Of a stretch of 64,000 nucleotides of DNA, positions 14,465 through 62,498 are shown piece by piece. Positions within the stretch are counted from its first letter, which is position 1. Each line of letters begins with the position of its first letter. Both the position numbers and the translations under genes were made by a program. The notes under the pieces are model-generated. The model did not search any database and was not told the DNA's origin. It worked only from the letters and a program-made list of their open reading frames with translations. Origin of the DNA: Candidatus Bathyarchaeia archaeon (GTDB lineage Archaea > Thermoproteota > Bathyarchaeia > Bathyarchaeales > Bathycorpusculaceae); contig JAVZNT010000001.1 in assembly GCA_038882655.1 (NCBI GenBank), positions 122,576-186,575 of the forward strand. Reading direction: 5' to 3'.

Positions 14465-16303
14465 ATGATTTGTGGCTATGTAGCCAGCACACAGCAACCT
14501 ACGGTAGAAAATATTCTCTGCAAAGTGAATCCCCAAGCTGAAGTGTTCATTTATAAGCGGAGGAAATTTATAGGGTGGTTCTTAGCTAGCAAAAAAGATA
14601 AGGTGATATATGAAAATAATCAACTACTTTTAATTGATGGGCTTCCTGTTTTAAAAATCTCGCCTTATGATTACGATGTATGGGACAAAAACGAAGACTA
14701 TATTAAAAAACAAATTAAAGTGAAACGTTTTCTAGATCTGCTTGAACAAATAGTTTCTAATGTAAATTCCATATTTTTTGATGCGAATGAGGGTAAGCTT
14801 TTGCTTGCCTCAAATAGAGCTGCCGCGGGAAGGATATATTATAAACGTATTCAAGAGGGCCTTGTTTTTTCAAATAATTTTCTTTGCTTAATGAAAATGG
14901 GTGAAATAGATCTAAACTGGGATGCCGTCTATGCGATTATTAAATATGGGGCGCCTCCAGACCCGCTGACCATTTCTAAAGACATATTTTCAATACCGGT
15001 AGGACATTATGGGATCTGCAGCATTCCTAAGTTTAATATTTCCATTCAGCCCTACTTCCAGTTTGACTTTCCACAAAAACATAATGGTAATTTAGAAGCC
15101 GTCAAAAAGTATTTACTTGGTTCTGCAAAGCTGTTGGGTTCATTAAAGGCGTCTATCTTGTTAAGTGGTGGGGTTGATTCAACTTTATATGCGCATTTGT
15201 TATGTGAAAACGCAGACGATGAGATACGAGCTTTTTATCTTTGCTTTGGAGAAAATGATCCCGAGATAACTTTTGCTGAAAAAGCAGCAGCGGAATCTGG
15301 TTGCTCCTTGGAGATAATTGAAATGCAAGAGAACGATGTGGTTGATTCAATAAGTGAAATGGTGGAAATGTACTCTCATCCATTTTCCGATTATTCTACC
15401 ATTCCGACATACTATCTGTTGAGGCAAATTTGGAACAAAGTGGAGTCAGGGATTTTAGTTGAGGGGACAGGTGGTGATGCTTGTTTTGGTTTTAGCACTC
15501 TTTTGAACGCTAACAGGTGGATTAGGGTATTTAACGCTCCGTTTTTCATTAAGGCGCTGGCTAGGAAGTTGTATTCAACACCAGGTTTTTGGGATGCCAA
15601 CGTTTTTTTTGTAAGGTATTTAGCGGCATTTGCTGCATGCTGTGAACCATATATGACGCTAAGTCCGCTTGTTCTGTGTCCTGCAGATAATGTTTTCAAT
15701 GAATCTTATGTTTCCAAAACGGACATTACAGGGCATTACTTACGCCTTTTCAGTAATCTAATCAAAAAAGAGGAACATAACCTCTCATTTCACGCGATGG
15801 CTACGGTGGCTGATATAGCTCATACCTGCAGTAAATTGTATACTGCAAAGACTTATGGATTATTTAGTAGTAAAATCCAAGTAGTTTACCCATATTTATG
15901 GCGGGACATTCTGATAGAGCAGGGTAATATTTCTTGGACGATAAAAATTCGAAATGGTATTGTAAAGTGGCCTTTGAAGTCTTTGTTAGAAAAATATATG
16001 TCAAAAGAGTTTGTATATCGGAAGAAGAGTGCTTTCCTCCCACCGTTGGAACGATGGTTAAGAGACGAGAGTGTTTACAAATTTTTTAGGGAAACGTTGG
16101 TTGATCAAGAGATTATAGTTGGCAGGGTTGTTTCTCAAGAAAAGTCGGCAAAGTTGGTTAATCGGTTATCAAAGTCACGTAATATTTCGCCTTCGCTTTG
16201 CCATTTTCTTTGGGGAACCTTATTTACAGAACTATGGCTAAGACGAAACTTGAAAAACGCTACAAACATCTCACAGCAAGAACGCAATTACTTTGCTTTT
16301 TAA
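14465..16303 (+). CDS. Asparagine synthase-like (AsnB family) amidotransferase
   Basis: LLSGGVDS ATP-pyrophosphatase motif, HPFSDYS.IPTY, GTGGDACFG, KWPLK...RKKSAF.PPL..WL. Confidence 0.8.
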   Translation: MICGYVASTQQPTVENILCKVNPQAEVFIYKRRKFIGWFLASKKDKVIYENNQLLLIDGLPVLKISPYDYDVWDKNEDYIKKQIKVKRFLDLLEQIVSNVNSIFFDANEGKLLLASNRAAAGRIYYKRIQEGLVFSNNFLCLMKMGEIDLNWDAVYAIIKYGAPPDPLTISKDIFSIPVGHYGICSIPKFNISIQPYFQFDFPQKHNGNLEAVKKYLLGSAKLLGSLKASILLSGGVDSTLYAHLLCENADDEIRAFYLCFGENDPEITFAEKAAAESGCSLEIIEMQENDVVDSISEMVEMYSHPFSDYSTIPTYYLLRQIWNKVESGILVEGTGGDACFGFSTLLNANRWIRVFNAPFFIKALARKLYSTPGFWDANVFFVRYLAAFAACCEPYMTLSPLVLCPADNVFNESYVSKTDITGHYLRLFSNLIKKEEHNLSFHAMATVADIAHTCSKLYTAKTYGLFSSKIQVVYPYLWRDILIEQGNISWTIKIRNGIVKWPLKSLLEKYMSKEFVYRKKSAFLPPLERWLRDESVYKFFRETLVDQEIIVGRVVSQEKSAKLVNRLSKSRNISPSLCHFLWGTLFTELWLRRNLKNATNISQQERNYFAF

Positions 16304-16320
16304 TTAAAAACGTGCATTTT

Positions 16321-17484
16321 ATGGTGATATTATTGCGTGTTGGCATTTTTATTCCGACATTGAACGTTTGTGGAGGGGCTGAATATGTGGCGATTGCCAT
16401 GGCAAATGCATTAGCTAGGCAATCTTATGAGGTTGTACTTTTTACGAATGAGCCGGTAAATCATTATCAAATACGGAATTTTTTGGGTGTAAGTTTAAAT
16501 CCGTCCATTAAATGTATCGTTTTTCCATCATTAGCTCGACCTTATTATCTTCTGGATTTTTATCAAACGATTTTTCGTTCTTACATTTTTAGACTGAAGT
16601 GTGATTTATGGATCGATGTGTATTCTCGTCGTATTTTCCCATGGACGAATATTACGTACATTCACTTTCCGTTTTCGCGTAGTCAATGGTATAGGCCGAA
16701 GTTTCCATATCTGAGGCGCCCGCGTTTCATGCAAGCTGCCATTTTACCGTACGTCATATTTGAAAAAAAGCTAGTGCGCGATGATGGAAAACTAATACTT
16801 GCCAATAGTCAGTACACGGCTGAGGAAATAAGAACTTTTTTGGGTAAAAAAGCGGAAGTGCTTTATCCACCGGTTCAATCTACTTGTTTTGAGAGTAAAA
16901 CAGAAAAATTGGTCAAAAAACCGCGAAAAGATCTGGTAGTCACTGTTTCACGCTATTCATTGCCAAAGCAATTGGAAATGATTCCTTACATAGCTTCGTT
17001 TACAAGATCTAGTGTGGAGTTTGCGTTGATTGGACGCGTTTATGATAATGATACGTTAAGGACGTTGATTTCATTACAAAGATTGACTAAAAAGCTTGGT
17101 TTAACCGATAGAATAAAGTTTTTCACAAATATTTCTAGGGGCAATTTAAAGGAGATATTAAAAAGTGCGAAAGTTTACTTACATACAATGGTTGGCGAAC
17201 ATTTTGGAATATCTATAGTTGAAGCCATGGCGATGGGTTGTATCTCAATAGTTCACGACTCCGGAGGACCAAGAGAATTTGTTCCAGACAATCTTAGATA
17301 TAAAACCGTTAAAGAGGCAGCAGAAAAAATTGAGAAAGAAATCTGTGGTTGGACTCCTCAGAAAGCTAATGAAATGATCGAAATTGCTCAAAGATTCAAA
17401 GAAGAAAACTTCTCCAAGAAATTTATCGACTTTTTCAACCAATACAAAACAACTTTTGAAAACAACTTAAAATATAAAATTTGA
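16321..17484 (+). CDS. GT4 glycosyltransferase (ALG11-like)
   Basis: GGAEYV, YIHFP, ANSQYTA, LYPPV, LHTMVGEHFGISIVEAMAMG, HDSGGP. Confidence 0.9.
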   Translation: MVILLRVGIFIPTLNVCGGAEYVAIAMANALARQSYEVVLFTNEPVNHYQIRNFLGVSLNPSIKCIVFPSLARPYYLLDFYQTIFRSYIFRLKCDLWIDVYSRRIFPWTNITYIHFPFSRSQWYRPKFPYLRRPRFMQAAILPYVIFEKKLVRDDGKLILANSQYTAEEIRTFLGKKAEVLYPPVQSTCFESKTEKLVKKPRKDLVVTVSRYSLPKQLEMIPYIASFTRSSVEFALIGRVYDNDTLRTLISLQRLTKKLGLTDRIKFFTNISRGNLKEILKSAKVYLHTMVGEHFGISIVEAMAMGCISIVHDSGGPREFVPDNLRYKTVKEAAEKIEKEICGWTPQKANEMIEIAQRFKEENFSKKFIDFFNQYKTTFENNLKYKI

Positions 17485-17500
17485 CCGAATAATTACTGAG

Positions 17501-18367
17501 ATGTCTACTATGCGTTATCCTTTTGTTTCCGTAATTGTTTGCACTTTAAATAGAAAGGAATTTTTGAGAAGATGCCTTAACGAATTACTTAATGTTAATT
17601 ATCCAGAATCACAATATAAGATAATTGTTGTTGACGGCGGATCTGTAGACGGAACAGAGAATATGGTGAAGAATGAATTTCCCAGTGTTAAGTATGTAGT
17701 TGAAAAACGGAGTGGTGTGTCTTATGCAAGAAATAAAGGGTTAGAAATCGCAAGGGGAGAGGTTATCGCGTTTACAGACGACGATTGTATTGTAACAAAG
17801 GATTGGTTGTATAATTTGGTAATCAGCTTTGATTCGCCCGAAATTGGGGCTGTTGGGGGGCCTGTCCGTTTTACAAGGAAAATCCCACGTAAACTTTTAG
17901 TCAAAGCTGCTTTAGGCGGGTATGATCTTGGTGAGAGAAGGCAATTTGTAGGTTATTTGGTTACAAGTAACATAGCGGTAAAGCGTAAAGTTTTCCGGAA
18001 AATAAGATTTGATGAGAATCTAGGACGAAAGGGAGACATGCTTTTTGATAACGAAGATATCGACTTTTGCGAAAGAATTTTGAGGATGGGATATAAACTT
18101 GTATACAATCCTAAAGCCATAGTTTATCATAATATTAACCCAGAGAGAATCAAAGTGAAATATATTTTGGTGAGAGCATTTTACTCTGGCAAAAGTCTCT
18201 ATTTAATGAAAAGAAAATATGCACGCTCGAGTGTTCACTTGTTTAGAGACATTGTTAGATCAACTATAGGAGCAGCGCTTCTCTTTTTATTTAACATAAA
18301 TCTGGAGAATTTTTATTTTTTAATAAGGAATTTTTCAATGTGTTTGGCATTCATTAACTTAATTTAA
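17501..18367 (+). CDS. GT2 glycosyltransferase
   Basis: VSVIVCTLNR, VVDGGSVD, ARNKG, FTDDD, EDIDFC. Confidence 0.9.
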   Translation: MSTMRYPFVSVIVCTLNRKEFLRRCLNELLNVNYPESQYKIIVVDGGSVDGTENMVKNEFPSVKYVVEKRSGVSYARNKGLEIARGEVIAFTDDDCIVTKDWLYNLVISFDSPEIGAVGGPVRFTRKIPRKLLVKAALGGYDLGERRQFVGYLVTSNIAVKRKVFRKIRFDENLGRKGDMLFDNEDIDFCERILRMGYKLVYNPKAIVYHNINPERIKVKYILVRAFYSGKSLYLMKRKYARSSVHLFRDIVRSTIGAALLFLFNINLENFYFLIRNFSMCLAFINLI

Positions 18368-18427
18368 GTTTAGTAGTAGAACAGTTATATCGATACACCA
18401 GAGAAAATATGGTGAAAACGGGTAATG

Positions 18428-19693
18428 TTAAGGCATCGTTAACGGGTGTGGATATAGGTATGGCGTATACCAGTCTGGTTTGTATAGGAAATAGTGAACG
18501 CCAGGCTCCATTGGTCCGCTTTCCAACGTCATACCGCCAATATTGTTGTTCCAAATGTAGAAGTCCTTAGGTCCTTGCACGTCAGGGTTCCAAGATGTAG
18601 GAGAGTCTCGTATGAAGTATCTGTATCCAGATGCGGTGTTATTGAATATTATGCCACTGCCAGCATACAATTCTATCACACAGTCGCTTGAATCTACTGG
18701 GTTGGCGAACGTGCACTCGTAAAGTTCCAACGCCCTTCCACTAGCATATGGAGAATTCCACGCTGGATGCACATCTACTTCCCCGCGTCCAAGACCATCT
18801 GTGAAAACACAATGCCTAACAACCACATGCCCTCCATAGTTTGTAGTAACGCATGAACGCCACTTTGTGAAAAGACAGTCTTCCACAAAAACTGTGTAAC
18901 TGAGGTATTTCCCTAAAATTTCCGTTATATCATCCCATACTGCGCATCCATCTTCCCTACAAACAGATATAGCATATCCAACCTCCCTAGTAGCCCAGTC
19001 CATAGTCCATGAAACGTTGACGTTATGGAATATACAATGGTCTATTACTCCGCAGCATCTGTGCCAAGCAGTTATTCCCTCACCAAACGATATAAAAGCG
19101 CAATGGTCTACACGAAAATTAAAAAGTGCATTAAGTTTAAGCGCTTTATAGAAACCTACAGCAGAAGCGTTGAACCATTTATACCCCACCAATTTAAGGT
19201 CAGAAAACCTAGACGACTTGACGGGATTACTGGTCCCTGTAATCAAAAACCAATGAGGCGGGTCACCAGCCTTACTACCAGGCATATCCCAAGGCATAAC
19301 GAGGACCGTTTTCCATTCTTTAACTGAACCATTTTCATATCTTTCCGTGGGTGCACCAAAAACACTCACCCCCTCTGGAACAGTCACCCTTGCGCCGGAC
19401 CAGCTTTCTCCTAGATTAACAAAGTTCCATGTGCCTTCTGGGATGCGGACTATGCCTATTCCGTTAGAAGCGGCCAGGTTTACAGCGTCTTGTATATCCC
19501 GCCAATAGCCGCTTCTCGCTGTGATTTCTGGAGCTATCCTCCCAGTATTGGATATAATTACTCTTCCAATGTCTGCAGCAAAAGAAAAGCCCACAACTCC
19601 AACAAGAACCGCTAGAATTAAAGCAACTTTGTAAAAGCGTAAATCCCGCAACTTTAAGCCGCCTTGAGCTGCTGTGGCTTTAAACATCCACAA
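18428..19693 (-). CDS. Secreted parallel beta-helix (pectin-lyase-like) protein
   Basis: N-terminal hydrophobic helix, DIQDAVN..VRIPEGT, repeated VDHC.F / IDHC.F / VEDC.F / VRHC.F, G.GIIFNNT, YIWNN, C-terminal YTPYLYPHPL; true start may be ~19651. Confidence 0.7.
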   Translation of the reverse strand: MWMFKATAAQGGLKLRDLRFYKVALILAVLVGVVGFSFAADIGRVIISNTGRIAPEITARSGYWRDIQDAVNLAASNGIGIVRIPEGTWNFVNLGESWSGARVTVPEGVSVFGAPTERYENGSVKEWKTVLVMPWDMPGSKAGDPPHWFLITGTSNPVKSSRFSDLKLVGYKWFNASAVGFYKALKLNALFNFRVDHCAFISFGEGITAWHRCCGVIDHCIFHNVNVSWTMDWATREVGYAISVCREDGCAVWDDITEILGKYLSYTVFVEDCLFTKWRSCVTTNYGGHVVVRHCVFTDGLGRGEVDVHPAWNSPYASGRALELYECTFANPVDSSDCVIELYAGSGIIFNNTASGYRYFIRDSPTSWNPDVQGPKDFYIWNNNIGGMTLESGPMEPGVHYFLYKPDWYTPYLYPHPLTMP

Positions 19694-19757
19694 ATCCCTT
19701 AATAAGGTTATTTGTGTTTCAAACTAATTAATCTTATGTATTACGATACAATTTAAA

Positions 19758-21899
19758 ATGGTGAAAGAAATGCAAAACAAAACGAAATTAAAAACATTCC
19801 TAACATTAATAGCCCTCCAACTCACAGCAAACGCCCTAATACTCCTTAATATTCCAATAGTAAGACAAACCTTCATCTTCGCATATTTCACACTAATGCC
19901 GGGCCTACTCATCATTCAACTACTAAAGCCCAAGGACCTTAGAAAAACCGAAATCCTCACTTTTTCTGTGGGAATAAGCGTTGCCCTACTAATGTTCATC
20001 GGCCTATTCGTAAACGAACTCGGATTTTCAATAGGCATAACTCGCCCCCTCTCACTTGTTCCCTTATTAACAGCCCTAAACATTTTCATACTCGCAAGCA
20101 CCATCCTCGTAATTTCAAAAGGAGACTACACCATTTTACAAAAAATAAAAATAAATGAAAAACCCCATACAATCCACCTACTCATACTATTAATAATCAC
20201 CACAAGCATACTAGGCGCCATATGGGTAACTATCTACAGAAACAATACAATCCTAATGTTAACCATAGCCCTAATAGCCATAACCTTCTCCATAGGATTA
20301 TTCTCAAACAAAGTCTTTCCACCAAAAAGCTACAAAATCGCCATTTTAGGAATAGCGCTCGCCATCCTCCTCCACGCAACGCTAATATACAAATACCCCA
20401 TTCCCTACGGATCTGACACATCATACGAACTTTACATCTACGAATCCACAGAAAACAAAGCCTACTGGAACTCAACCCTTTTCCGAGACCAGTTGCACGG
20501 CAGACTAAACTCAATGGCAAGCATTACAGTTCTCCCAACAATCTACTCGACAATATTAAATTTAGATCCATTATACGTGAGGAAAATTCTATACGCGGTA
20601 ATCTTCTCATTTGTACCATTAATCCTATTTCAATTTTGGCAAAAAAACTTCGGATATAAAAGATCCTTTATCGCAGTTTTCTTCTTCATGTCATCTATAA
20701 CATTTTTTACAGAAATGGTTGGGCTTGGCAGACAAATGATTGCCGAGCTTTTCTTTGCCCTACTGCTAATAATAATTTTCAACAGAAAAAGGACATTCTT
20801 CGATAACGCATGTTACGCAATCTTCAGCGTGGCGTTGGTGATATCCCATTACGCTTTAGCAGAAATTTTCCTAGGGCTGATCATCCTCACAACGTTAATT
20901 GTGCTAATATTAACAAGGAAACCAACCAGAAAAGCCACAATAACCATGACCGCATTCTTCCTCGTCGTAATGTTCACATGGTACATATATACTTCCCACT
21001 CAACAGTATTCGAAAGCACAGTATCCTTCGGAAACTACGTGCTTGAACAACTAGACGAATTCTTCAACCTATCATCAAGAGAGCCAACAATACTGAGAGC
21101 GCTTGGACTTGAAAAACCAGAAACCATCTGGAACCTTGCAAGCAGAGTTTTCTTTTATCTTACCGAACTCTTAATAGCCCTTGGCTTTATAGCACTGATC
21201 ACAAAACGAACAGATATAAAACTTGAAAACGAACAATTCATCTTTACAATAGTGGCAATGTTCTTCCTAGGCTTAACTATAGTAATGCCGGGCATGTCCA
21301 AAACCCTTAACGCAACAAGGTTCTATCACATTTTGCTGTTCATACTAGCGCCCCTATGCGTATTAGGAAGCGAGTTCCTAACCAAACTAATATTTAAACA
21401 AAGGCATAATCTCGCGTCCACAAGCTTACTCTTCATGGTTTTGGTGCCCTACTTTCTATTCCAGTCAGGCTTCATCTACGAACTAGTAAATAACGAAAGC
21501 TATGCACCCCTCAGCCTCCACAGAATGGACCCATATCGCCTCTACTTCTGGGCTGGATTCGCAGACGACCCAAGCGTGCACGGTGTTAAATGGTTATCCG
21601 CAAACGTAAACTTTAAGCAAACCCATATATTTGCAGACCTATCTTCAATAAGGCACCTATTGCGCGCTTACGGCCTTATACCTGATAGATATGTCACCTC
21701 TGTTTCTAATACAACTATAATGTCACAAGGGCAACTAGTCTACCTAAACTCGCTAAACACTGTCCACAACGTAACAGTTACCGGATCAATGGCTATTGGA
21801 CGTGTTTACACTCCCCCCACAAACGAGATTTCATTCTTAGAAAACATGAACAAAATATACACAAACGGAGGAGCTGAAATTTTACAGAACCAGCCTTAG
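19758..21899 (+). CDS. DUF2206 family multi-pass membrane protein (possible GT-C-type glycan enzyme)
   Basis: Many TM segments; PGL, GSD..YE, RQMIAE, SHY, TRFYH, C-terminal NKIYTNGGAEI. Confidence 0.8.
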   Translation: MVKEMQNKTKLKTFLTLIALQLTANALILLNIPIVRQTFIFAYFTLMPGLLIIQLLKPKDLRKTEILTFSVGISVALLMFIGLFVNELGFSIGITRPLSLVPLLTALNIFILASTILVISKGDYTILQKIKINEKPHTIHLLILLIITTSILGAIWVTIYRNNTILMLTIALIAITFSIGLFSNKVFPPKSYKIAILGIALAILLHATLIYKYPIPYGSDTSYELYIYESTENKAYWNSTLFRDQLHGRLNSMASITVLPTIYSTILNLDPLYVRKILYAVIFSFVPLILFQFWQKNFGYKRSFIAVFFFMSSITFFTEMVGLGRQMIAELFFALLLIIIFNRKRTFFDNACYAIFSVALVISHYALAEIFLGLIILTTLIVLILTRKPTRKATITMTAFFLVVMFTWYIYTSHSTVFESTVSFGNYVLEQLDEFFNLSSREPTILRALGLEKPETIWNLASRVFFYLTELLIALGFIALITKRTDIKLENEQFIFTIVAMFFLGLTIVMPGMSKTLNATRFYHILLFILAPLCVLGSEFLTKLIFKQRHNLASTSLLFMVLVPYFLFQSGFIYELVNNESYAPLSLHRMDPYRLYFWAGFADDPSVHGVKWLSANVNFKQTHIFADLSSIRHLLRAYGLIPDRYVTSVSNTTIMSQGQLVYLNSLNTVHNVTVTGSMAIGRVYTPPTNEISFLENMNKIYTNGGAEILQNQP

Positions 21900-22147
21900 T
21901 AAATTTTAAAGCATTTCACAAGCTACACTCGCTTCAGTACTTATTTAAATCAGCTGCATGGTACGCGGGTTTTATAACCAGTCATCTACACAATTACGAA
22001 CCAAAAACACTTCAGTATAAACCTAACTTGCGCATAACAAACAGCAAATTAATAGAATAATAACAATTTTGTTCAGAATAAAATATATCTTTCATCATCT
22101 TCACCCGAACAAACTGGAAAACTATGCCGCTCTAAAAAAGTTTATTG

Positions 22148-22168
22148 AACCTCTAGAAACCTTAAATG
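22148..22168 (+). promoter_or_regulatory. Putative BRE/TATA promoter (AACCTCTAGAAACCTTAAATG), leaderless type
   Basis: The identical 21-mer lies ~30 bp upstream of the ATG of both paralogs (also at 29224-29244). Confidence 0.5.
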
Positions 22169-22194
22169 CTTGCTCAACCCATTTTCAGTTTGAA

Positions 22195-23097
22195 ATGTGC
22201 CCAGAAACAAGCAAAAAAGCCGAAGAAAAATCATTTGAAATAATGACCACCCAGCATTTAATAGAAACAATAAATCAGCTTCAAACAGAAGTTGAAAATC
22301 TGAAACAAGAATTAAAAAAAGCCAAAAGCATACCATCCGGAAAAATAGGTTTAGCCTTCATAATTCTTAGCACATCGGCCCTAATTGCTTCTGTTTTAAT
22401 TAACTTGTATATCTTAGCCTTCATAGGTTTAGCCTTAGCCTTTTGGGGTGCCCTTTTCTTTTTCGTGAAGCCAGCGCGATATGCTCAAAGCAGCTTGTTA
22501 GCCCTAACAGCAACATCAACATACACAACAATCGACAGAATAATAAAAGACTTAAAATTCAAAGGTAAAAGCTATTACATACCACCTTCTCCACAAGCAG
22601 ATTCGCATGAATACTCTCAGGGCCTCAAAGACCCTGTAGTTTTCATAGCTGGCGATTCGCGTGGAATACTACCACTAGAGGAGGCTGTAGAAAGCAAGTT
22701 TCTACTCAAGAACCCCCACGGAATATACATTACTCCACCAGGACTTGGGCTTCTAAAACAGTTTGAAAAAGAATTAAGAAAGGACTTATCGAAGCTTAAA
22801 TTAACTGAATTATGCAAAATCCTGCCACCATTAATTGTTGATAATTTGCAATTGGCAAAAAATATTGAAATGCAAGCCAGAGATAGCCATGTTTACCTCA
22901 AAATATTAAACTCAACCTATATGGATTTATATATCACAGAGGAAAAATTGAAAAGCATTTACTTCCTTGGATGCCCACTCATAAGCGCTATAGCTTGCGC
23001 AGTAGCCAAGACTTCTGGAAAAACTGTTACAGTAGAAGGACAAAAAGTATCTAACGATAAGCAGACAGTCGAAGTTTGGTATCGTATAATGGAATAA
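22195..23097 (+). CDS. Hypothetical membrane protein, paralog A (coiled coil + 2 TM + GCPxxSAIAC domain)
   Basis: Colinear, high similarity to 29273..30196; shared MCP start places the start at ATG 22195. Confidence 0.75.
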   Translation: MCPETSKKAEEKSFEIMTTQHLIETINQLQTEVENLKQELKKAKSIPSGKIGLAFIILSTSALIASVLINLYILAFIGLALAFWGALFFFVKPARYAQSSLLALTATSTYTTIDRIIKDLKFKGKSYYIPPSPQADSHEYSQGLKDPVVFIAGDSRGILPLEEAVESKFLLKNPHGIYITPPGLGLLKQFEKELRKDLSKLKLTELCKILPPLIVDNLQLAKNIEMQARDSHVYLKILNSTYMDLYITEEKLKSIYFLGCPLISAIACAVAKTSGKTVTVEGQKVSNDKQTVEVWYRIME

Positions 23098-23313: not shown

Positions 23314-24084
23314 GTGAAAATATATATGAATATGAAAAGAGGAGAAGTATACATTTCTATAGCCATCGCTTTAATTATAGCCTCAGCATTTATTCAACCT
23401 GCATTAGCATGCTACGTCTACGTAGAAGGATATGTGACATATTGCGGATGTACCCCTGCAGAAGGCCTAATAATCAAAGTCTACTACATACCATCAGTTA
23501 TTCCCGGTCCCGAACAGCTAGTAGGAACCGACATAACAGACTCCAGCGGATATTATAGGATAGATTTCCACCTGCCCTACTGGAATGAACAGTACAGAAT
23601 AGAACTTTGGTCTTCAGATGGCATCACACTTTTAAACCAAACAACAATACTATGGGTAATGAATGTTGATCATTATAGGATCGACTTCAAATTGCCTGGC
23701 ATATGTGGAGAAGGTTTCACGCCAGGCTTCTGGAGAAACCACTTAGAAATCTGGGTCACCTACACTCCAAGCACGCTTTGGAAAGATGTTTTCGAAGACC
23801 CAATATCAATAAGAATTGGTAAAAAGACAATCACAAATCCCACATTAGGACAAGTAATAATCGCTACAGGCGGAATCAACGAGAAAATAGGCGTATATGA
23901 CGCATTAGCAAGGCACGCCGTTGCAGCCCTTCTAAACGCAGCCCACCCCAACGTGGACTACCCAATGACGATAGCCGAAATAATAAACGCAGTCAATGAA
24001 GTGATCGGCAACGCTGACTATACAGACGCAGCAACATTGAAGAACACTCTAGAAGCGTACAACAACTTTGGCGGCACAATATAA
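23314..24084 (+). CDS. Secreted hypothetical protein (transthyretin/prealbumin-like N-domain + GFTPGFW...AVAALLNA C-domain)
   Basis: Signal peptide (PALA), TDSSGYY motif, TPGFWRNH and LARHAVAALLNAAHP motifs. Confidence 0.65.
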   Translation: MKIYMNMKRGEVYISIAIALIIASAFIQPALACYVYVEGYVTYCGCTPAEGLIIKVYYIPSVIPGPEQLVGTDITDSSGYYRIDFHLPYWNEQYRIELWSSDGITLLNQTTILWVMNVDHYRIDFKLPGICGEGFTPGFWRNHLEIWVTYTPSTLWKDVFEDPISIRIGKKTITNPTLGQVIIATGGINEKIGVYDALARHAVAALLNAAHPNVDYPMTIAEIINAVNEVIGNADYTDAATLKNTLEAYNNFGGTI

Positions 24085-24322
24085 ACAAACAATTACAGTT
24101 AAATGGACAAATCATCCCAAGAGCTGGCAAGCCTTAGAGGGCGTCTAAAGCTGTAAAGCTTTATAACTTTGCAACTACAACAACTTAGACTTCCAACACA
24201 AGAAAGATTGGGAAAAACAATCGAAATCGTACTAGTATTGCTAGAAAATATTAGAACAAAAATAACTTAATATAAACCGATAAACTTCTAATATTCCGAA
24301 TTAAAAATTGGACTGGAAACAT

Positions 24323-24874
24323 ATGAAAATGCCGCTAAAAACTCTGATCGGTTTCATAAGACGGCATCGGAAAACTTTGCTCCTAAGCATAACCGTTTCC
24401 TCAGCAACATTGCTGGTGAGCACAATAGTTTCCATATGGCTCAACAACTTTCACAACGTGCGCTTGCCAACTCTAGGAACTATAAGAGCAATTGGCGTTG
24501 AAGTTTATGGCGGCAATTTAACCAACGGTGCACAACTTGACTGGGGAACTATTTACCCGGGAACCTTGACAAACCGCTCATTTTACGTTCAAAGCGAAAG
24601 TAACACGCCAGTAACTTTAAGCCTAAAACAATTAAACTTCACACTCCTAAATTCAAAAGGAGAAAATGTCACTGACTATTTACCATTACCCCCAACAGAA
24701 GCATTAAACATCACATGGAACTGTGGTGGCGTTGTTTTAAACCCTAGACAAGAAACTTTTGCAACATTAACTCTAAACGTAACTAGAGATTTCGGTTTTG
24801 TACAGTTTTTGATAAACTATAATGTGGTTGAGTTTAATTTTGATATCCGCATTGAGGCAAAGCCGATAGAATAA
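24323..24874 (+). CDS. Small surface protein with N-terminal hydrophobic helix and DWG-x-x-x-PG beta-sandwich (putative filament subunit)
   Basis: GTIRAIGVEVY...LDWGTIYPG...FYVQSESNTPVTLSL...FNFDIRIEA; homologous to 30427..30873. Confidence 0.65.
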   Translation: MKMPLKTLIGFIRRHRKTLLLSITVSSATLLVSTIVSIWLNNFHNVRLPTLGTIRAIGVEVYGGNLTNGAQLDWGTIYPGTLTNRSFYVQSESNTPVTLSLKQLNFTLLNSKGENVTDYLPLPPTEALNITWNCGGVVLNPRQETFATLTLNVTRDFGFVQFLINYNVVEFNFDIRIEAKPIE

Positions 24875-24973: not shown

Positions 24974-25687
24974 ATGCAAAATACGCCAAACAATGTTATT
25001 TCAGTGGTTATTCCAGCCTACAACGAAGAGAAAACCATTGGAAGCGTCATTGAAGAAACCCTTCAAGTAATGGACAGCTTAGGTTTACCCTATGAAATTA
25101 TTGTTGTCGATGATGGTTCAACAGACGGCACTAAAGAGATAGCAAGCAAATATAAGGCTAGAGTATTATCCAATGGAAGAAATCAAGGAAAGGGTTACGC
25201 CCTAAGGAAGGGTTTCCAACATGCTCGAGGCGAAATAGTTGTAACAATTGACGCTGACGGTTCTCATAAACCAAAGGAAATCCCGGATTTGCTTTATCCG
25301 CTATTTAACGGGGCGGACATCGTAGCTGGTTCAAGATTCTTAGGTAAGGGGGAAGATTATACATCCAAACTTCATATGCTTGGTAACCATCTAATCAATA
25401 TGACAATAATGTTGCTGACACGAAAGCTTATCACAGATAGCCAAACAGGTCTAAGAGCCTTTAAAAGAAAATTACTTGAAAAAGTGAATTTAGAATCCTA
25501 CGGATATGAAATTGAAACCGAAATAACCGTTAAGGGACTAAAAAATGGCTTTAAGTTTCAAGAAATCCCGATTAGTTGCCAGAAGAGAGAGCACAGCGTT
25601 TCCAGGTTAAGGATACTTTCAGATGGGTTTAAAATTCTTAAAACAATTCTAACGTCCGTTGCTAAAAACAACAATGGTGATTCTTAG
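24974..25687 (+). CDS. Polyprenol-phosphate glycosyltransferase (GT2, DPM1-like)
   Basis: VVIPAYNEE, VVDDGSTDGT, NQGKGYAL, IDADGSH, GSRF, DSQTG. Confidence 0.9.
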   Translation: MQNTPNNVISVVIPAYNEEKTIGSVIEETLQVMDSLGLPYEIIVVDDGSTDGTKEIASKYKARVLSNGRNQGKGYALRKGFQHARGEIVVTIDADGSHKPKEIPDLLYPLFNGADIVAGSRFLGKGEDYTSKLHMLGNHLINMTIMLLTRKLITDSQTGLRAFKRKLLEKVNLESYGYEIETEITVKGLKNGFKFQEIPISCQKREHSVSRLRILSDGFKILKTILTSVAKNNNGDS

Positions 25688-25784: not shown

Positions 25785-26348
25785 ATGAAAACTGTTTACG
25801 TAGCATTGGCCGTTCTATTAATTGGACTATTTCTAGCAACAGCTAATATAGCCCATGCACAATGGCCTGCGTTAAGCTCAGGTTATGCTGTAACAACAAA
25901 CTGGCATGGGAAAGAAGTTCCGCTGGGCGAAAGCGTCACCGTATGGGCAGGAACAACTGACTCGAATGTTCAAGAAGTGCTGTTCCGATGGAAAAGGCCA
26001 GATGAAACAATATTTGTTGAGATTAACGTTCCAGTAGTTGGTCCGTACACAACGCCCAACGTTCCTGAAGGCGTGCCACAAGAAATTATTAACTGGGCTA
26101 ACAGTAACCCAGGCATAAACGTCTATTACGCAAATAACACGCAAACTCCAGACACGCTTGGCGATTGGGGCGTTCAAGCTTTCTTCAGAGGACCAGGCGG
26201 GAAAACAAAAGCAGGCGTCGAAGAGACAATAGCTATAAGGGCAACGTCATTTAATGTCATACCAGACCTTCCCGTAGTCGGTACCGCAGGCGCGGTAACA
26301 GCAATGCTTTTAGGTTTAGGATTGTTTTTCCAGAAAAAGAAACAATAA
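25785..26348 (+). CDS. Secreted protein with C-terminal sorting signal IPDLP-TM-KKK (exosortase target 1)
   Basis: Signal peptide (AHA); C-terminus FNVIPDLPVVGTAGAVTAMLLGLGLFFQKKKQ. Confidence 0.75.
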   Translation: MKTVYVALAVLLIGLFLATANIAHAQWPALSSGYAVTTNWHGKEVPLGESVTVWAGTTDSNVQEVLFRWKRPDETIFVEINVPVVGPYTTPNVPEGVPQEIINWANSNPGINVYYANNTQTPDTLGDWGVQAFFRGPGGKTKAGVEETIAIRATSFNVIPDLPVVGTAGAVTAMLLGLGLFFQKKKQ

Positions 26349-26499
26349 AACTCTTGAGAACGATTTTAAAACATGCGGTTGTACCAAGATAATGGGTTTT
26401 TAATAGAAAATTTTGTTAAAGGGTCTATACTTGTTTTCCATGTCGATTTATAAGAGTGCGATTTCAAATATTTTATCGACGCACAAAGAGGGGAAAGGA

Positions 26500-27114
26500 T
26501 TGAACCTTAAAAAATTGCTGCTAGCGCTTGTAATTGTTGCTTTTGCTGCTAGTTCTATTTTTATATTAGGTGTCAAAGCGGAGGATGAAATAAACGACTA
26601 TGACAATGTACTTGCGGAACAAGTAATTAATGACATCAACAGCACTGTTAACTCAGGTCTTAATGAAGGAGAAATAAAATATGACCAAAATTACACGCTT
26701 TACAGGTTAACAGTGATGCCGAAAAGTGTTACCGTTGGGCAACAGGTAACTGCAATAGCGGAAACAGATAATAAACATGTGACCCATGTCACATTCGTGT
26801 GGGTAAAAGCGTTTGATGGAATCAGAAAAATAGAAACTGTTCCAGTTTATTTGGAAAACGGTTTGAAAAAAGCTGAAAGCACATACAACCCTGACGAGCG
26901 AGGTTCATGGTGGGTGTTCGCTTTGTTTGAGCAAAGATATGTTGATTCATGTAAATGTGGATGGTTGTTCGCCATGCGGTGGGCATGCTTTAGGGTCACT
27001 GGAATCCAACAACAAGTACCAGATTATCCAGTGGTTGGCACCGCTGGCGCCGTGACAAGCATGCTTGTGAGTTTAAGTTTATTCCTAAATAAGAAAAAAC
27101 AAAAGCCCATTTAG
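26500..27114 (+). CDS. Secreted protein with C-terminal sorting signal VPDYP-TM-KKK (exosortase target 2)
   Basis: Signal peptide (VKA) from TTG 26500; C-terminus QQVPDYPVVGTAGAVTSMLVSLSLFLNKKKQKPI. Confidence 0.75.
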   Translation: MNLKKLLLALVIVAFAASSIFILGVKAEDEINDYDNVLAEQVINDINSTVNSGLNEGEIKYDQNYTLYRLTVMPKSVTVGQQVTAIAETDNKHVTHVTFVWVKAFDGIRKIETVPVYLENGLKKAESTYNPDERGSWWVFALFEQRYVDSCKCGWLFAMRWACFRVTGIQQQVPDYPVVGTAGAVTSMLVSLSLFLNKKKQKPI

Positions 27115-27174
27115 CGGGCTCAATTTATTCTTAAACTTGCTTTCGGTTTTATTTTTGTTTGAAGGGTTGATATC

Positions 27175-29232
27175 GTGAAGAAGGTTCTAGACAAAATTAG
27201 GTGGGTAACCAGTATATTGAAGGATTATTGGCAACACATTTTAGCCGTATCTCTTTTTCTGTCAATAATTTGGGTGGTTTATTGGCATGACCTAGAAATA
27301 TTGGCAAATGAAGCTCTTCATACTGAAGCTCTTTCCCACGTCTTTTTAATACCTCTTTTCGTAGGCGTTCTTCTCTACTTGAAGAGAGATGTGTTTAAGG
27401 CTTCGTTTGCTTTAAATTCTCTGCGGAAGAAATCGGGGAGCATGTTTTTTGACGAGCTTGTCGGATTAAGCCTATGCCTCATAGCCTTTCTCGTCTACTG
27501 GTATGGTTCTTACACGCTCTACCCGTTGGAATATCATATGCTCGCCCTACCCATATTCGTGGCGGGCATTATACTAATTCTCTTTAACCTAAAAGCCTTG
27601 AAAGCGCTCACTGTCCCTGTGGTTCTCCTCATTTTTCTGGTTCCAATTCCCAACGAGATAGCATACACTTTGGGCGGAAGCTTAGCCAACTTTAACACTC
27701 AAGCCTCCTACACACTACTGAAGGGACTAGGAGTCCCAGTAACATTAAACACAACGTATGGTTCTCCAACCATAATGTTGGTAAAACCCCAAGAGCCGCC
27801 TATTCCATTTACGGTGGACATTCCATGCTCAGGAATTTATATGTTAACCGCCTTTTCCATGTTCGCCGTTTTCTTAGCGGCGATTGTGCAAGCCTCAACT
27901 CTTAAAAAGGCTTGGATTTTCATGCTTGGATTCGCCATATTCGAGGTTTTAAACATAATCCGCATAACATCCATAGTTTCTGCAGCCTACCTTTTCAGCG
28001 AAGAAGTCGCCATGCTGATTTTCCATTCAGCGGCAGGCTTGATCCTCACATTTATTGGAATATTCATCACTCTAATTGTGTCTGAAAAGCTATTAGGGAT
28101 AAAAGTTGCCACCAGCAAGATCGAAACGCCTTCATGTTCAGAGTGTAATAAACTGCGGGAGAAATTCCAGAACTTTTGCTTAAACTGTGGAAGGTTCTTT
28201 AACCCGTTTAAAAAGAAGCCCTCTAAAATTTTTTGGACAAAACTAATACTGCTGCTGGTCGGCTGTTTTCTAATATCCTTGAGTGTCAACGCACCAGTTT
28301 TCGCGATCTCTAAGGAAACAATGGAAGTAACCTCGTGGGAAAGAACAACAGAAATTTTGCCGCAGATTCCAGAGCACCGACTCGTTTTTCTATATCGGGA
28401 TACAGACTATGAACGAATAGCGAAACAGGATGCGTCGCTGGTTTACGCCTATTTTCCAGCAAACCTTTCAAGGCCAGTTACTTATGTCCTTATAGGCGTG
28501 GCAAGCAGCATCTCAAACCTTCACAATTGGGAAGTCTGCCTCATATCATGGCAGACAGCTTACGGACGTTATCCGCTGGTTGAAGTTCTAGTCTCTAAAG
28601 ACATACAATTACTTGAAGGTAACCAGTTGATTGCAAGGTACCTAGTTTTTCAAAATTCCGAGGAAAACTATACGCAATTCACCCTTTATTGGTATGAAAA
28701 GGCAACATTCAAATTAGGCGCCACCGTGCAGCAGCGGTACGTTAGAATAAGCCTTATAATATTAGCAGGGAATGCTTTCAGTCATCAACAATATGAAAGC
28801 CAGCTTCTAGAGTTTGGAGAGGCCGTGGCCCACCACTGGGAACCAATAAAGACACATTCCTTGTTTTCTTTAGGAATAACCGCGCAACAAACCCTTCTCG
28901 TCTTTTCAATAGCCCTCATAATAATCACAAAAGTAGCCCAGTCCACTCACGAGTGGCGCAAAAAAATGAATAACCTTAAAATATTCAACAATCTCGCTTC
29001 GCCAACAGATAAGCTTGTGCTTCAGACAATCACCGAACTGAGCAAAGCCAAAGGGACCGCCACAACAGCTGAAATAAGCTTTGCAATCAAGAACAAAACT
29101 GGAAAAACATTGAGACTTGAAAGGCTTGTAGAACGGTTAAACCGCCTACAAGAATATAATTTCGTAAAAATGGATATAACCGCGAACAATAACAAGCCTC
29201 TACTAGTTTGGAAAAGTTTAGTAAACCTCTAG
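27175..29232 (+). CDS. Exosortase/archaeosortase family transpeptidase fused to Zn-ribbon, EpsI-like and winged-helix domains
   Basis: SHVFLIP, LVPIP and Cys-Arg-His triad motifs VDIPCSG / LNIIRI / IFHSAAG; CSEC..CLNC; LHNWEVCL and LYWY; C-terminal wHTH-like segment. Confidence 0.88.
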   Translation: MKKVLDKIRWVTSILKDYWQHILAVSLFLSIIWVVYWHDLEILANEALHTEALSHVFLIPLFVGVLLYLKRDVFKASFALNSLRKKSGSMFFDELVGLSLCLIAFLVYWYGSYTLYPLEYHMLALPIFVAGIILILFNLKALKALTVPVVLLIFLVPIPNEIAYTLGGSLANFNTQASYTLLKGLGVPVTLNTTYGSPTIMLVKPQEPPIPFTVDIPCSGIYMLTAFSMFAVFLAAIVQASTLKKAWIFMLGFAIFEVLNIIRITSIVSAAYLFSEEVAMLIFHSAAGLILTFIGIFITLIVSEKLLGIKVATSKIETPSCSECNKLREKFQNFCLNCGRFFNPFKKKPSKIFWTKLILLLVGCFLISLSVNAPVFAISKETMEVTSWERTTEILPQIPEHRLVFLYRDTDYERIAKQDASLVYAYFPANLSRPVTYVLIGVASSISNLHNWEVCLISWQTAYGRYPLVEVLVSKDIQLLEGNQLIARYLVFQNSEENYTQFTLYWYEKATFKLGATVQQRYVRISLIILAGNAFSHQQYESQLLEFGEAVAHHWEPIKTHSLFSLGITAQQTLLVFSIALIIITKVAQSTHEWRKKMNNLKIFNNLASPTDKLVLQTITELSKAKGTATTAEISFAIKNKTGKTLRLERLVERLNRLQEYNFVKMDITANNNKPLLVWKSLVNL

Positions 29233-30426: not shown

Positions 30427-30873
30427 CTACTGCTCTGTCCCGGATATAATTATGCTAAATGAAAAGTTTGTTATTCCACTGATGGCTGGGTTAACACTTA
30501 AAGTTAAATTTACGCCGACAATATGGCCGGCATTTAAGACGTAGCCACTACGGTCCCATGTCACTGTGATATAGTTTGCAGCTGCAGCGGGAGACCACCC
30601 AGAAGTTGTCATACTCAAGACAACGGGCACTGTTCCGTTGTTACGTACGTAAATAGTTTTGGTCACAGTTTCTCCAGGTGCTAGCATTCCCCAATCTATG
30701 GTTGTAACAGGACTTGTCCCGTTACTATACCAGTAAACACTCACCCCAGCTGCTTTAATAGTTGCAGTATTATGGAATGAATATAACGCTGTAAGTGCAC
30801 TTAAAGCAACTGCAACAAATGTTACTGTAACGATGGTCAATAGCATACCTACCTTGATTCGTTGCATAGCCAT
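30427..30873 (-). CDS. Small surface protein with N-terminal hydrophobic helix and DWG-x-x-x-PG beta-sandwich (putative filament subunit)
   Basis: NTATIKAAGVSVY...IDWGMLAPG...IYVRNNGTVPVVLS...FSFSIIISG; N-x-T sequons. Confidence 0.7.
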   Translation of the reverse strand: MAMQRIKVGMLLTIVTVTFVAVALSALTALYSFHNTATIKAAGVSVYWYSNGTSPVTTIDWGMLAPGETVTKTIYVRNNGTVPVVLSMTTSGWSPAAAANYITVTWDRSGYVLNAGHIVGVNLTLSVNPAISGITNFSFSIIISGTEQ

Positions 30874-61423: not shown

Positions 61424-61553
61424 AATCAACAAGTAATTTTGGCAAAAAGACTGCTTATGTACAGAATTTCTTAGTATGGATCAAGTCAGAAATTGTCCAA
61501 AAACTTTATTTTGTATATTTTGCGATTATCACGGAGAATCAGGAGAGAATGAA

Positions 61554-62498
61554 ATGCCTAGGAAAACAATTTTGGGGGTTATAACGCTACTGTTGTTAAT
61601 TTACATGTTGGCTATGGTGTTTAACATTCAACAGGTCAAAGCTGGAACAATTACTGTGCCAGACAATTATCCAACAATTCAAGCAGCTTTGGAGGCTTCG
61701 AATAACGGAGATATCATTTTCGTAAGGGCTGGAGTATACTTTGAAAACGTGGTTGTAGACAAAAGCGTCTCACTTGTAGGAGAAAACGCAGCAACCGCAA
61801 TCATTGACGGGGGCGGAAGTGGAACAGTTATTTACATAACTGCAAATAACGTCCAAGTCACAGGCTTTACAATACGAAACAGCGGTGGTTGGCCCAGCTA
61901 TGGGGTTCGGATAGAAGATGTAAATAATTGCAATGTTTTCAGGAACAACTTAACGAACAACTGGTGTGACATTAGGCTTTACTATTCTTCAAATAATAGC
62001 ATAGCCGAAAACATCATAACAAACAGTGAAATCGGCATATGGGTTGCCAATTCTTTAAACAATAGCATAACTAAGAACACCATAACAAACAATAATTATG
62101 GCATTGAAATCGATTATTGTTCAGAGAATAACATAAATGAAAATGATATAATGACAAATAACTATGGTATTGTGCTCACCAGCGCTTCAAATAACAATAT
62201 TTATCATAACAATTTTATCAACAACGCCGATCAGATTGATTCTTTCGACTCGGTGAACGCTTGGGATGACGGTTATCCTTCCGGAGGGAACTATTGGAGC
62301 GATTACACAGGGATAGACAATAACGGCGATGGCATAGGCGACACTGCATACATAATAAACACAAACAATCAGGATCGTTATCCATTGATTAATCAATGGA
62401 TAATACTCGAGTTTCCACAAAGTTCCATGCTCATCAGCCTTATATCATTAACTACAATCTTCTTAATTTACTTAAAGAAACGAACCGCAAAAAACTGA
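61554..62498 (+). CDS. Secreted NosD/CASH beta-helix protein with PEF-CTERM-like tail
   Basis: Signal peptide (VKA), TITVPDNYPTIQAA, Asn-rich PbH1 repeats, GNYWSDY.G.D..GDGIGD, tail ILEFP-TM-KKR. Confidence 0.85.
   Translation: MPRKTILGVITLLLLIYMLAMVFNIQQVKAGTITVPDNYPTIQAALEASNNGDIIFVRAGVYFENVVVDKSVSLVGENAATAIIDGGGSGTVIYITANNVQVTGFTIRNSGGWPSYGVRIEDVNNCNVFRNNLTNNWCDIRLYYSSNNSIAENIITNSEIGIWVANSLNNSITKNTITNNNYGIEIDYCSENNINENDIMTNNYGIVLTSASNNNIYHNNFINNADQIDSFDSVNAWDDGYPSGGNYWSDYTGIDNNGDGIGDTAYIINTNNQDRYPLINQWIILEFPQSSMLISLISLTTIFLIYLKKRTAKN

Follow-up and report, generated by a model that had tools for sequence, protein, structure and literature searches.

Archaeosortase ArtA of Haloferax volcanii cleaves PGF-CTERM substrates, after which a lipid is attached, and its residues Cys173, Arg214 and Arg253 are required, as described in the cited parts of PMC9263693 and PMC6098224. 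The part of PMC6098224 used here places archaeosortases in a subset of Euryarchaeota, and that of PMC5244752 pairs ArtC with the PEF-CTERM signal. Judged by PMC9263693 and PMC6098224, ArtA/PGF-CTERM is the only such system for which cleavage and lipid attachment have been proved by experiment. Here we analyse a system known from sequence, located in a 64,000-nucleotide stretch of DNA (the window; positions 122576-186575 of contig C1) from a Candidatus Bathyarchaeia archaeon, whose genome assembly amounts to 1.02 Mb in 27 contigs and is 84% complete. Two secreted proteins, T1 and T2, are encoded there directly upstream of a 685-residue exosortase-family protein (the long sortase), and both end in a short motif, a hydrophobic helix and basic residues. 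In the literature on archaeosortases that was searched (Bathyarchaeota, PEF-CTERM, PGF-CTERM and ArtA catalysis) no description of this system was found. Novelty lies in the class of sorting motif, in the sortase clade and in its domain architecture, while the working principle would be a known one, as in ArtA/PGF-CTERM and exosortase/PEP-CTERM.

With ArtA/PGF-CTERM the locus shares a polytopic membrane enzyme from one superfamily, in which a Cys and an Arg, presumably equivalent in the two, are conserved, and substrates built of a motif, a membrane helix and a basic C-terminal tail. The two systems differ in the motif, which is P-[ED]-x-P-x-G here instead of PGF, and no ArtA or PGF-CTERM model matches. 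They differ also in the enzyme, which is 685 residues long here and carries a zinc ribbon, an ectodomain and a winged helix, and in the host, a Bathyarchaeion and not a euryarchaeon. With bacterial exosortases the locus has in common its setting among glycosyltransferases, and this group, comprising XrtW (NF038142), XrtD (TIGR04152), XrtT (NF033770) and XrtA/EpsH, supplies the best-scoring subfamily models for the sortase core. PEFG-, Loki- and Heimdall-CTERM are likewise non-euryarchaeal signals curated in NCBIfam, and lineage-specific classes are thus to be expected. The CTERM classes are taken as Haft et al. 2012 reportedly defined them.

The genes of the cassette all lie on the + strand, in the order GT2 glycosyltransferase, T1, T2, long sortase and a 307-residue membrane protein, P307, according to the listing of open reading frames (ORFs; coordinates in Table 1). 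The initial annotation, made from the letters of the window, had described two secreted paralogues directly 5´ of an exosortase gene. The ORFs agree with this, and the 685-residue product meets the superfamily models PF09721 (106.7 bits, cut-off 25.7) and TIGR04178 (48.1 bits, cut-off 23). In both T1 and T2 a hydrophobic signal stands at the N-terminus, and near the C-terminus a further hydrophobic segment precedes KKK. The C-terminus of T1 reads IPDLPVVGTAGAVTAML from base 26259, then a hydrophobic stretch and KKKQ, and that of T2 reads VPDYPVVGTAGAVTSML from base 27016, then a hydrophobic stretch and KKKQKPI; the near-identical tripartite tails reported for the pair are thus confirmed in the ORFs. 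In the DNA alignment of the tails, all eight of the synonymous third-position differences previously listed (GAC/GAT, CCC/CCA, GTA/GTG, GTC/GTT, GGT/GGC, GCA/GCT, GCG/GCC, GTA/GTG) are present. Outside the tails, the two proteins had been called highly diverged. This is fair at 34% identity over 152 columns (E 6e-16), but they are paralogous throughout and not unrelated.

For T1, the start at ATG 25785 is likelier than that at GTG 25773, because the resulting length of 187 residues fits its homologues, and the position of the signal is conserved in the T1-family alignment. The family comprises 285 database homologues, all of them hypothetical and devoid of any Pfam domain. Across 41 T1-family proteins, conservation of P164, P167 and G170 is 90% or more, and a conserved R-A-T-S-F-N stretch lies ahead of them. 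The AlphaFold model of T1 (mean predicted local distance difference test score, pLDDT, 82.1) consists of an immunoglobulin (Ig)-like sandwich and a terminal helix, with a linker of low confidence that coincides exactly with the motif. A fold search with it returned generic Ig-like and CARDB matches, the best entry in the PDB being a CARDB domain (E 1.3e-3), and assigned no function. T2 orthologues are found directly 5´ of the sortase gene in the closest relatives. As for the sortase itself, 31 aligned family proteins share Cys218, Arg263 and His284 without exception, and the three residues occur in 50-51 of 52 aligned ORFs of related loci, a set that includes two wrongly picked ORFs.

We regard it as probable that these genes make up a sortase/substrate cassette of the exosortase-archaeosortase kind, order-specific in Bathyarchaeia, in which the adjacent 685-residue exosortase cleaves T1 and T2 at the motif and transfers them to an acceptor; the topology, the cleavage and the acceptor are what we infer, as is any part played by the zinc ribbon, the ectodomain, the winged helix or the DUF7982 neighbour. 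T1 and T2 would be exported by the Sec route by means of their N-terminal signal peptides and would then stay in the membrane through the C-terminal helix, the basic end being cytoplasmic. In this arrangement the outer membrane face is where the [VI]-P-[ED]-x-P-x(1-2)-G motif would come to lie. The Cys218/Arg263/His284 site, which hydropathy and counts of Lys and Arg residues place at the same face, could recognise it there. The helix would be cleaved off through a thioacyl intermediate, and the mature Ig-like protein would be passed to an acceptor, for which the analogy with ArtA makes a membrane lipid the likeliest candidate. Glycosylation of the anchored protein by the adjacent GT2 is plausible, because the cassette lies in a surface-glycan neighbourhood. 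A complex prediction for sortase core residues 1-345 with T1 tail residues 140-191 scored 0.00; made with no controls, it allows no verdict and is not evidence either way.

The pairing of tail and sortase was followed across genomes with a tail profile, built from 29 tail-bearing ORFs in 22 loci that were found around 30 related sortase genes with 1.5-kb flanks. In its own genome, the profile matches T1 (E 1.7e-17) and T2 (E 3.8e-17) only, both of which adjoin the sortase gene, the next match having E 0.6. Since the profile finds exactly these two in a genome of 1.02 Mb, their pairing with the sortase is not a matter of chance. A sample of the host's order was then scored (201 genomes; sortase match at E <= 1e-10, tail match at E <= 1e-4). 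Long-sortase matches occurred in 54 genomes and tail matches in 69, and 45 genomes had both. Of the others, nine matched the sortase alone, 24 matched the tail alone, and 123 gave a match to neither. Tails are therefore present in 45/54 genomes with a long-sortase match as against 24/147 without one.

Position gives the same picture. Of the 36 strongest tail matches (E < 1e-12), 28 are found no farther than 5 kb from a long sortase, five elsewhere in genomes possessing one and three in genomes without it; among all tail matches, the fraction within 5 kb is 49/127. As a control, we considered the 32 long-sortase genomes that had given no training tail. Tail matches are present in 23 of them, 15 having one within 5 kb, and 17 of the 51 matches lie so close, a 10-kb neighbourhood being well under 1% of these genomes. 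Chance would thus bring far fewer tail genes to within 5 kb of the long sortase. In a sample of the whole phylum (301 genomes) the long sortase was detected in 13, namely 11 in the host's order and two in one other family, and full-length relatives are present in the host's order.

Several points weigh against the proposed cassette. The profile was trained on sortase-adjacent tails, which makes the adjacency count partly circular (the non-training genomes serve as the control for this), and the sampled genomes are related and so not independent. The 54 sortase-positive genomes include partial, interrupted or short matches (G061, G136, G149, G120 and G126). Nine sortase-positive genomes lack a tail match, 24 of the 69 tail-positive genomes lack a long-sortase match, and the link between enzyme and substrate is one of adjacency and co-occurrence only. 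Seven tail-only genomes were inspected (G192, G146, G115, G173, G156, G075 and G060). In G192 and G146 the tail gene stands beside a DUF7982 gene at a contig end, where a long sortase could have been missed by the assembly. The assembly of G115 is a single contig, in which an in-frame stop splits the T1 homologue (locus L061, C1 about 932.4-933.0 kb) into ORFs of 104 and 101 residues, and in G173 (L062, C19) the homologue consists of two ORFs overlapping in different frames; these two cases would suit the proposed cassette if the gene decayed once the enzyme had been lost, but faulty assembly would also account for them. The remaining three, G156, G075 and G060, are 92-95% complete and encode intact tail proteins of the Q-V-I-P-E type, and no long sortase was found in them. 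Finally, the genome under study has a second sortase-family gene, coding for 328 residues and located outside the window (G000:C1 about 38.1-39.1 kb; L001 829-1815), and sortase-family matches of any kind occur in 155 of the 201 genomes.

A strict limitation of the tail to sortase-adjacent genes was also considered and is rejected: among the training genomes 15 matches, and among the remaining long-sortase genomes 34 of the 51, are separated from the sortase by over 5 kb or stand on a different contig. What had been proposed as a dedicated system is thus dedicated in so far as both tails of this genome adjoin the sortase, but relatives also carry distal tail genes, and the tag is borne by at least 13 cargo families unrelated by BLAST. 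As to co-occurrence, which the initial annotation had put forward as a check, tails accompany the sortase in 45 of the 54 sortase-positive genomes and occur without the long form in 24 of the 69 tail-positive ones.

The last of the points against the cassette lead to the alternative that the tails are a real signal but are cut by the widespread short archaeosortase, the long sortase having another job or substrate. The 328-residue protein (TIGR04178 50.4 bits) is such a sortase, and 20 tail-positive genomes, including the three nearly complete metagenome-assembled genomes with intact tail proteins, have sortases other than the long one only. However, the short sortase predicts tails far less well than the long one: tails are present in 20/102 genomes with a sortase-family match but no long-sortase match, and in 45/54 with the latter. 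(Four more tail-positive genomes have no sortase at all.) No examined tail gene lies near a short sortase, and the clustering of tail genes around the long sortase likewise speaks against this alternative. Moreover, a more natural client for the second enzyme is a LEFP-type tail encoded elsewhere in the window (61476-62498). We therefore think this alternative unlikely as a whole, even if the short sortase is a possible second or alternative processor of some or all tails.

Concerning the short sortase itself, its score on the thaumarchaeosortase model is 53 against a cut-off of 250, and no obvious substrate gene stands next to it. The host's order commonly has sortase-family genes whose open frames span about 330-390 residues. 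The LEFP tail belongs to a secreted NosD-like parallel beta-helix protein of 340 residues (61476-62498, + strand), in which an L-E-F-P motif is followed by a hydrophobic helix and KKR. This tail is unmatched by our tail profile and under cut-off on curated CTERM models (Heimdall-CTERM 15.2 against 24, Loki-CTERM 13.8 against 19.9); the protein may be a client of the short sortase.

Conservation of the motif bears on what the tail is for. In the alignment of the 29 tails, P8, P11 and G14 are invariant, with helix and basic residues after them, so that the selection on the motif proposed from the T1/T2 pair is supported by the comparison. The tail profile matched 393 proteins (E <= 0.001) among 1.84 billion database representatives, and in the best 150 of these matches xPxxP-(0-2)-G occurs within the last 55 residues in 148. 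Among the same 150, the residue before the first Pro is mostly V (77) or I (65), the one after it E (128), more rarely D (13) or Q (4), and the next one V, I, Y or L (132 together), while Gly follows the second Pro after one residue in 101 and after two in 46. The class motif is best written [VI]-P-E-[VIYL]-P-x(1-2)-G, and the PD form of the window with its VVGTAG is a local minority variant. Of the motif originally proposed as the cognate signal, PDxP-VVGTAGAVT, the two Pro and a Gly are common to the family, the Asp is in the minority, and VVGTAGAVT is local, not being conserved across the tail family.

When the tails were removed, 57 non-redundant carriers, drawn from the whole set of loci, fell into 13 BLAST families, the largest being that of T1 and T2 with 32 members. 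Ten long carriers were scanned for domains; NHL, PKD, CBM4_9, Big_1, PD40 and similar extracellular domains were found, two carriers being without a Pfam match. The tail is thus a conserved module portable between cargo proteins.

This portability can be set against another explanation, namely that the C-terminal helix is a permanent anchor, that P-[ED]-x-P-G is a structural hinge, and that the sortase acts elsewhere, for example in export of a glycan or surface polymer together with the glycosyltransferases. Cleavage is indeed an inferred step, the locus does belong to a glycosylation cluster (the upstream GT4, GT2 and DUF2206 genes of Table 1, in addition to the cassette's own GT2), and exosortases are said to have been linked first to exopolysaccharide loci. 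Yet if the helix served for anchoring alone, 13 cargo families without mutual relation would not all retain an invariant Pro-x-x-Pro-x-Gly at one set spacing from it, nor would the tail stay beside a sortase with an intact Cys/Arg/His site, and the tripartite layout is precisely the one that ArtA and sortases act on. We hold a permanent anchor to be quite improbable.

Next, the tails were compared with curated CTERM classes. None of the 29 tails reaches the cut-off of any curated CTERM model, in accordance with the earlier statement that the tail differs from the named archaeal classes; because HMMER filters can hide weaker matches, this result means none at cut-off and not absence of resemblance. 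Scoring against the existing hidden Markov models, proposed at the outset as a check, gave its best value with PEF-CTERM (TIGR03024), which matches a single tail of the 29, of the VPEFP form (locus L022; 18.2 bits, E 0.0022, cut-off 23). PEP-CTERM matches 3/29 tails, the best at E 0.1, which also sets the system apart from XrtA/PEP-CTERM. Loki-, Heimdall-, GPS-, VPLPA- and PEFG-CTERM match one or two tails each, all under cut-off (best scores 10.5 bits against 25 for PEFG-CTERM and 12.7 against 19.9 for Loki-CTERM; Heimdall-CTERM 1/29, E 0.14), and PGF-, VPXXXP- and VPDSG-CTERM find no match among the 29 at E up to 10. For the two tails of the window, no CTERM model matches at E up to 10, and the LPXTG anchor is the one model to do so, on the helix and basic part.

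The LPXTG anchor as such was rejected as a candidate class. It matches 8/29 tails, one of them at 16.6 bits against a cut-off of 15.9, but the match is compositional and covers profile positions 14-33, not the LPXTG motif.

In look, the tail class comes closest to PEF-CTERM, yet stays under its cut-off: the two have in common a Pro-Glu immediately ahead of the helix with a hydrophobic or aromatic residue after it, and the difference is a second invariant Pro and a Gly thereafter. That the tails are ordinary PEF-CTERM and the sortase a divergent ArtC, with nothing new to name, is highly improbable in spite of this resemblance and of the one VPEFP tail, since that tail is the only one matched and remains under cut-off, and since the sortase attains 21 bits on ArtC (TIGR03762, cut-off 100) but 82.5 on XrtW and 68.8 on XrtA, and ArtC (profile length 274) is without the 345-residue C-terminal extension.

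The enzyme behaves in the same manner towards curated models as the tails do. The long sortase reaches no cut-off among the named Xrt and Art subfamily models, its best being XrtW with 82.5 against 425. Next come XrtA (68.8/208), 8TM_EpsH (56.3/105.55), XrtD (46/400), XrtC, the VPDSG sortase (27.7/300), and, after ArtC, XrtT (19.7/250); in the same curated profile scan the ArtA and ArtB models gave no match. The thaumarchaeosortase model that belongs with PEFG-CTERM matches the short sortase of the genome and not the long one. Bacterial-type Xrt models thus give the core better scores than Art models do. NCBI names the relatives of the long sortase only 'exosortase/archaeosortase family protein'. 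Matches of Xrt models cover the core alone (residues 24-363), and this, together with scores far under the cut-offs of the XrtW, XrtA and 8TM_EpsH models (425, 208, 105.55), separates the long sortase from them. The length of the XrtW, XrtD and XrtT profiles (472-494 positions) presumably reflects a fused C-terminal EpsI-like domain; no zinc ribbon or winged helix falls within the matched ranges, and the likeness of our ectodomain to EpsI is weak. In the long sortase, a Thermoproteota lineage appears to possess an exosortase core of bacterial (Xrt-like) type that is joined to domains outside every curated subfamily model.

As for these additional domains, the zinc-ribbon loop is basic (12 Lys or Arg residues) and presumably cytoplasmic. 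Transmembrane helices at residues 357-375 and 566-584 flank the predicted ectodomain, and a basic tail of 100 residues follows the second. In the AlphaFold model of residues 341-685 (mean pLDDT 83.9), a long helix stands between an alpha/beta domain and a winged helix. Foldseek returned nothing at E <= 1e-3 for this C-terminal half, which leaves its function unassigned by fold. The weak matches were to LpqN/MTC28/Apa-like proteins for the ectodomain (E about 8e-3) and to the Ta0346 regulator and the Cdc6 winged-helix domain for the terminal part. The window's own C-terminal half has no Pfam or NCBIfam match. Among 42 homologous halves, DUF3485/EpsI (PF11984) is weakly matched in two (E 0.015), so that the ectodomain is possibly EpsI-like, and the winged helix is matched by Cdc6_C in 13/42, by FUR in 3/42 (best 1.4e-7) and also by TrmB, MarR and HTH_20. 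This domain, too, is presumably cytoplasmic.

Since an invariant zinc ribbon and a winged helix, both cytoplasmic, would be joined to an outward ectodomain by two membrane helices, one may speculate, with rather little confidence, that the long sortase is also a membrane-tethered one-component regulator. It would sense substrate load or the state of the surface and control transcription of the surface and glycosylation cluster, or recruit the DUF7982 protein, T1 being a major lipid-anchored, glycosylated envelope protein.

Two homologues of the long sortase, G070:C1:524390-526372 and G119:C9:330503-332509, are interrupted by one in-frame TAA each. The first of these genomes, G070, has no tail match either.

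The neighbourhood of the cassette is itself conserved. On 27 named Bathyarchaeia contigs the recurrent order is up188, GT2, target gene(s), sortase, DUF7982 and dn148. A tail-bearing ORF stands 5´ of the sortase in 20/27 of these loci, contig ends cutting most of the others. P307 lies directly 3´ of the sortase in 25/27, up188 5´ of the GT2 gene in 15/27, and dn148 is present in 17/27. In most related loci GT2 is directly 5´ of the target genes, and a DUF7982 gene follows the long sortase, including distant relatives with no tail gene within 1.5 kb. The GT2 protein attains 170.8 bits on the AglJ model TIGR04182, under its cut-off of 325. P307 and its upstream paralogue share an N-terminus of coiled coil and transmembrane helix and a C-terminal GCP...SAIACA motif.

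The proteins up188 and dn148, which flank the cassette in most related loci, are 28% identical (E 9e-13). Weak matches of the two are to choice-of-anchor D, SipW-dependent BsaA/TasA-like and CARDB families, and the pair may help to build a fibre or layer at the cell surface. Further upstream, a glycosylation and surface cluster extends over positions 16198-21899. Between the second DUF7982 gene and up188 there is a gene (23314-24084, + strand) for a secreted protein of 256 residues with a Cys-rich N-terminal part; profile scans of the Pfam/NCBIfam type found no family match for it. The locus occurs in near-identical form in hot-spring metagenome runs from four studies, and none of the runs listed is RNA with certainty. 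Two of the runs, labelled metatranscriptomic, are flagged 'probably DNA' and available as contigs only, and have no bearing on expression.

Table 1. Features of the sorting locus and its surroundings, in window coordinates.
Feature	Position	Strand	Remarks
GT4	16198-17484		upstream glycosylation/surface cluster
GT2	17501-18367		upstream glycosylation/surface cluster
Right-handed beta-helix protein, membrane-anchored	18428-19693	-	upstream cluster
DUF2206 polytopic membrane protein, 713 residues	19758-21899		upstream cluster
DUF7982-like paralogue of P307, upstream	22069..23097	+	ORF; likeness from direct reading of the sequences
up188	24308..24874	+	N-terminal membrane helix (one hydrophobic segment, residues 25-43), beta-rich domain; conserved neighbour, paralogue of dn148
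GT2 glycosyltransferase, AglJ/dolichyl-phosphate hexose transferase-like	24974..25687	+	PF00535 135.1 bits
T1, secreted Ig-like beta-sandwich protein, 187 residues	25785..26348	+	start ATG 25785; ORF opens at GTG 25773 (191 residues)
T1 N-terminal signal peptide, hydrophobic core, AHA before Q	25785..25859	+	hydrophobic segment residues 8-26; predicted cleavage site
T1 sorting tail, IPDLP-VVG motif, hydrophobic helix, KKKQ	26259..26345	+	tail profile E 1.7e-17
T2, paralogue of T1 with the same kind of tail	26413..27114	+	233 residues from TTG; start uncertain
T2 sorting tail, VPDYP-VVG motif, hydrophobic helix, KKKQKPI	27016..27111	+	tail profile E 3.8e-17
Long exosortase-family protein, 685 residues	27175..29232	+	sortase core, zinc ribbon, transmembrane helix, ectodomain, transmembrane helix, winged helix
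Catalytic-residue span	27826..28026	+	Cys218 27826-27828, Arg263 27961-27963, His284 28024-28026
Four-Cys zinc ribbon, C321, C324, C335, C338	28135..28188	+	Cys invariant (31 proteins); weak Pfam zinc-ribbon matches
Extracytoplasmic alpha/beta domain, residues 376-565	28300..28869	+	190 residues between two transmembrane helices; predicted topology
C-terminal winged helix, about residues 610-685	29002..29229	+	three helices, then two-stranded wing in the model
P307, DUF7982 membrane protein, 307 residues	29273..30196	+	Bathyarchaeota clusters of DUF7982 (PF25939) matched with feature score 0.93
dn148	30427..30873	-	N-terminal membrane helix, beta-sandwich; paralogue of up188, conserved neighbour

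Bathyarchaeia are abundant and uncultured, and their cell envelope is almost wholly unstudied; the locus gives a testable handle on it. For annotation pipelines, the finding amounts to two new models, one for the sortase subfamily and one for the CTERM domain. If the regulator reading were true, the sortase would couple surface anchoring to gene control. Profiles made from the sortase clade and its tag would list the probably covalently anchored surface proteome of the order, which now bears only the label hypothetical and comprises Ig-like proteins of the T1 family as well as PKD, NHL, CBM and Big-domain proteins.

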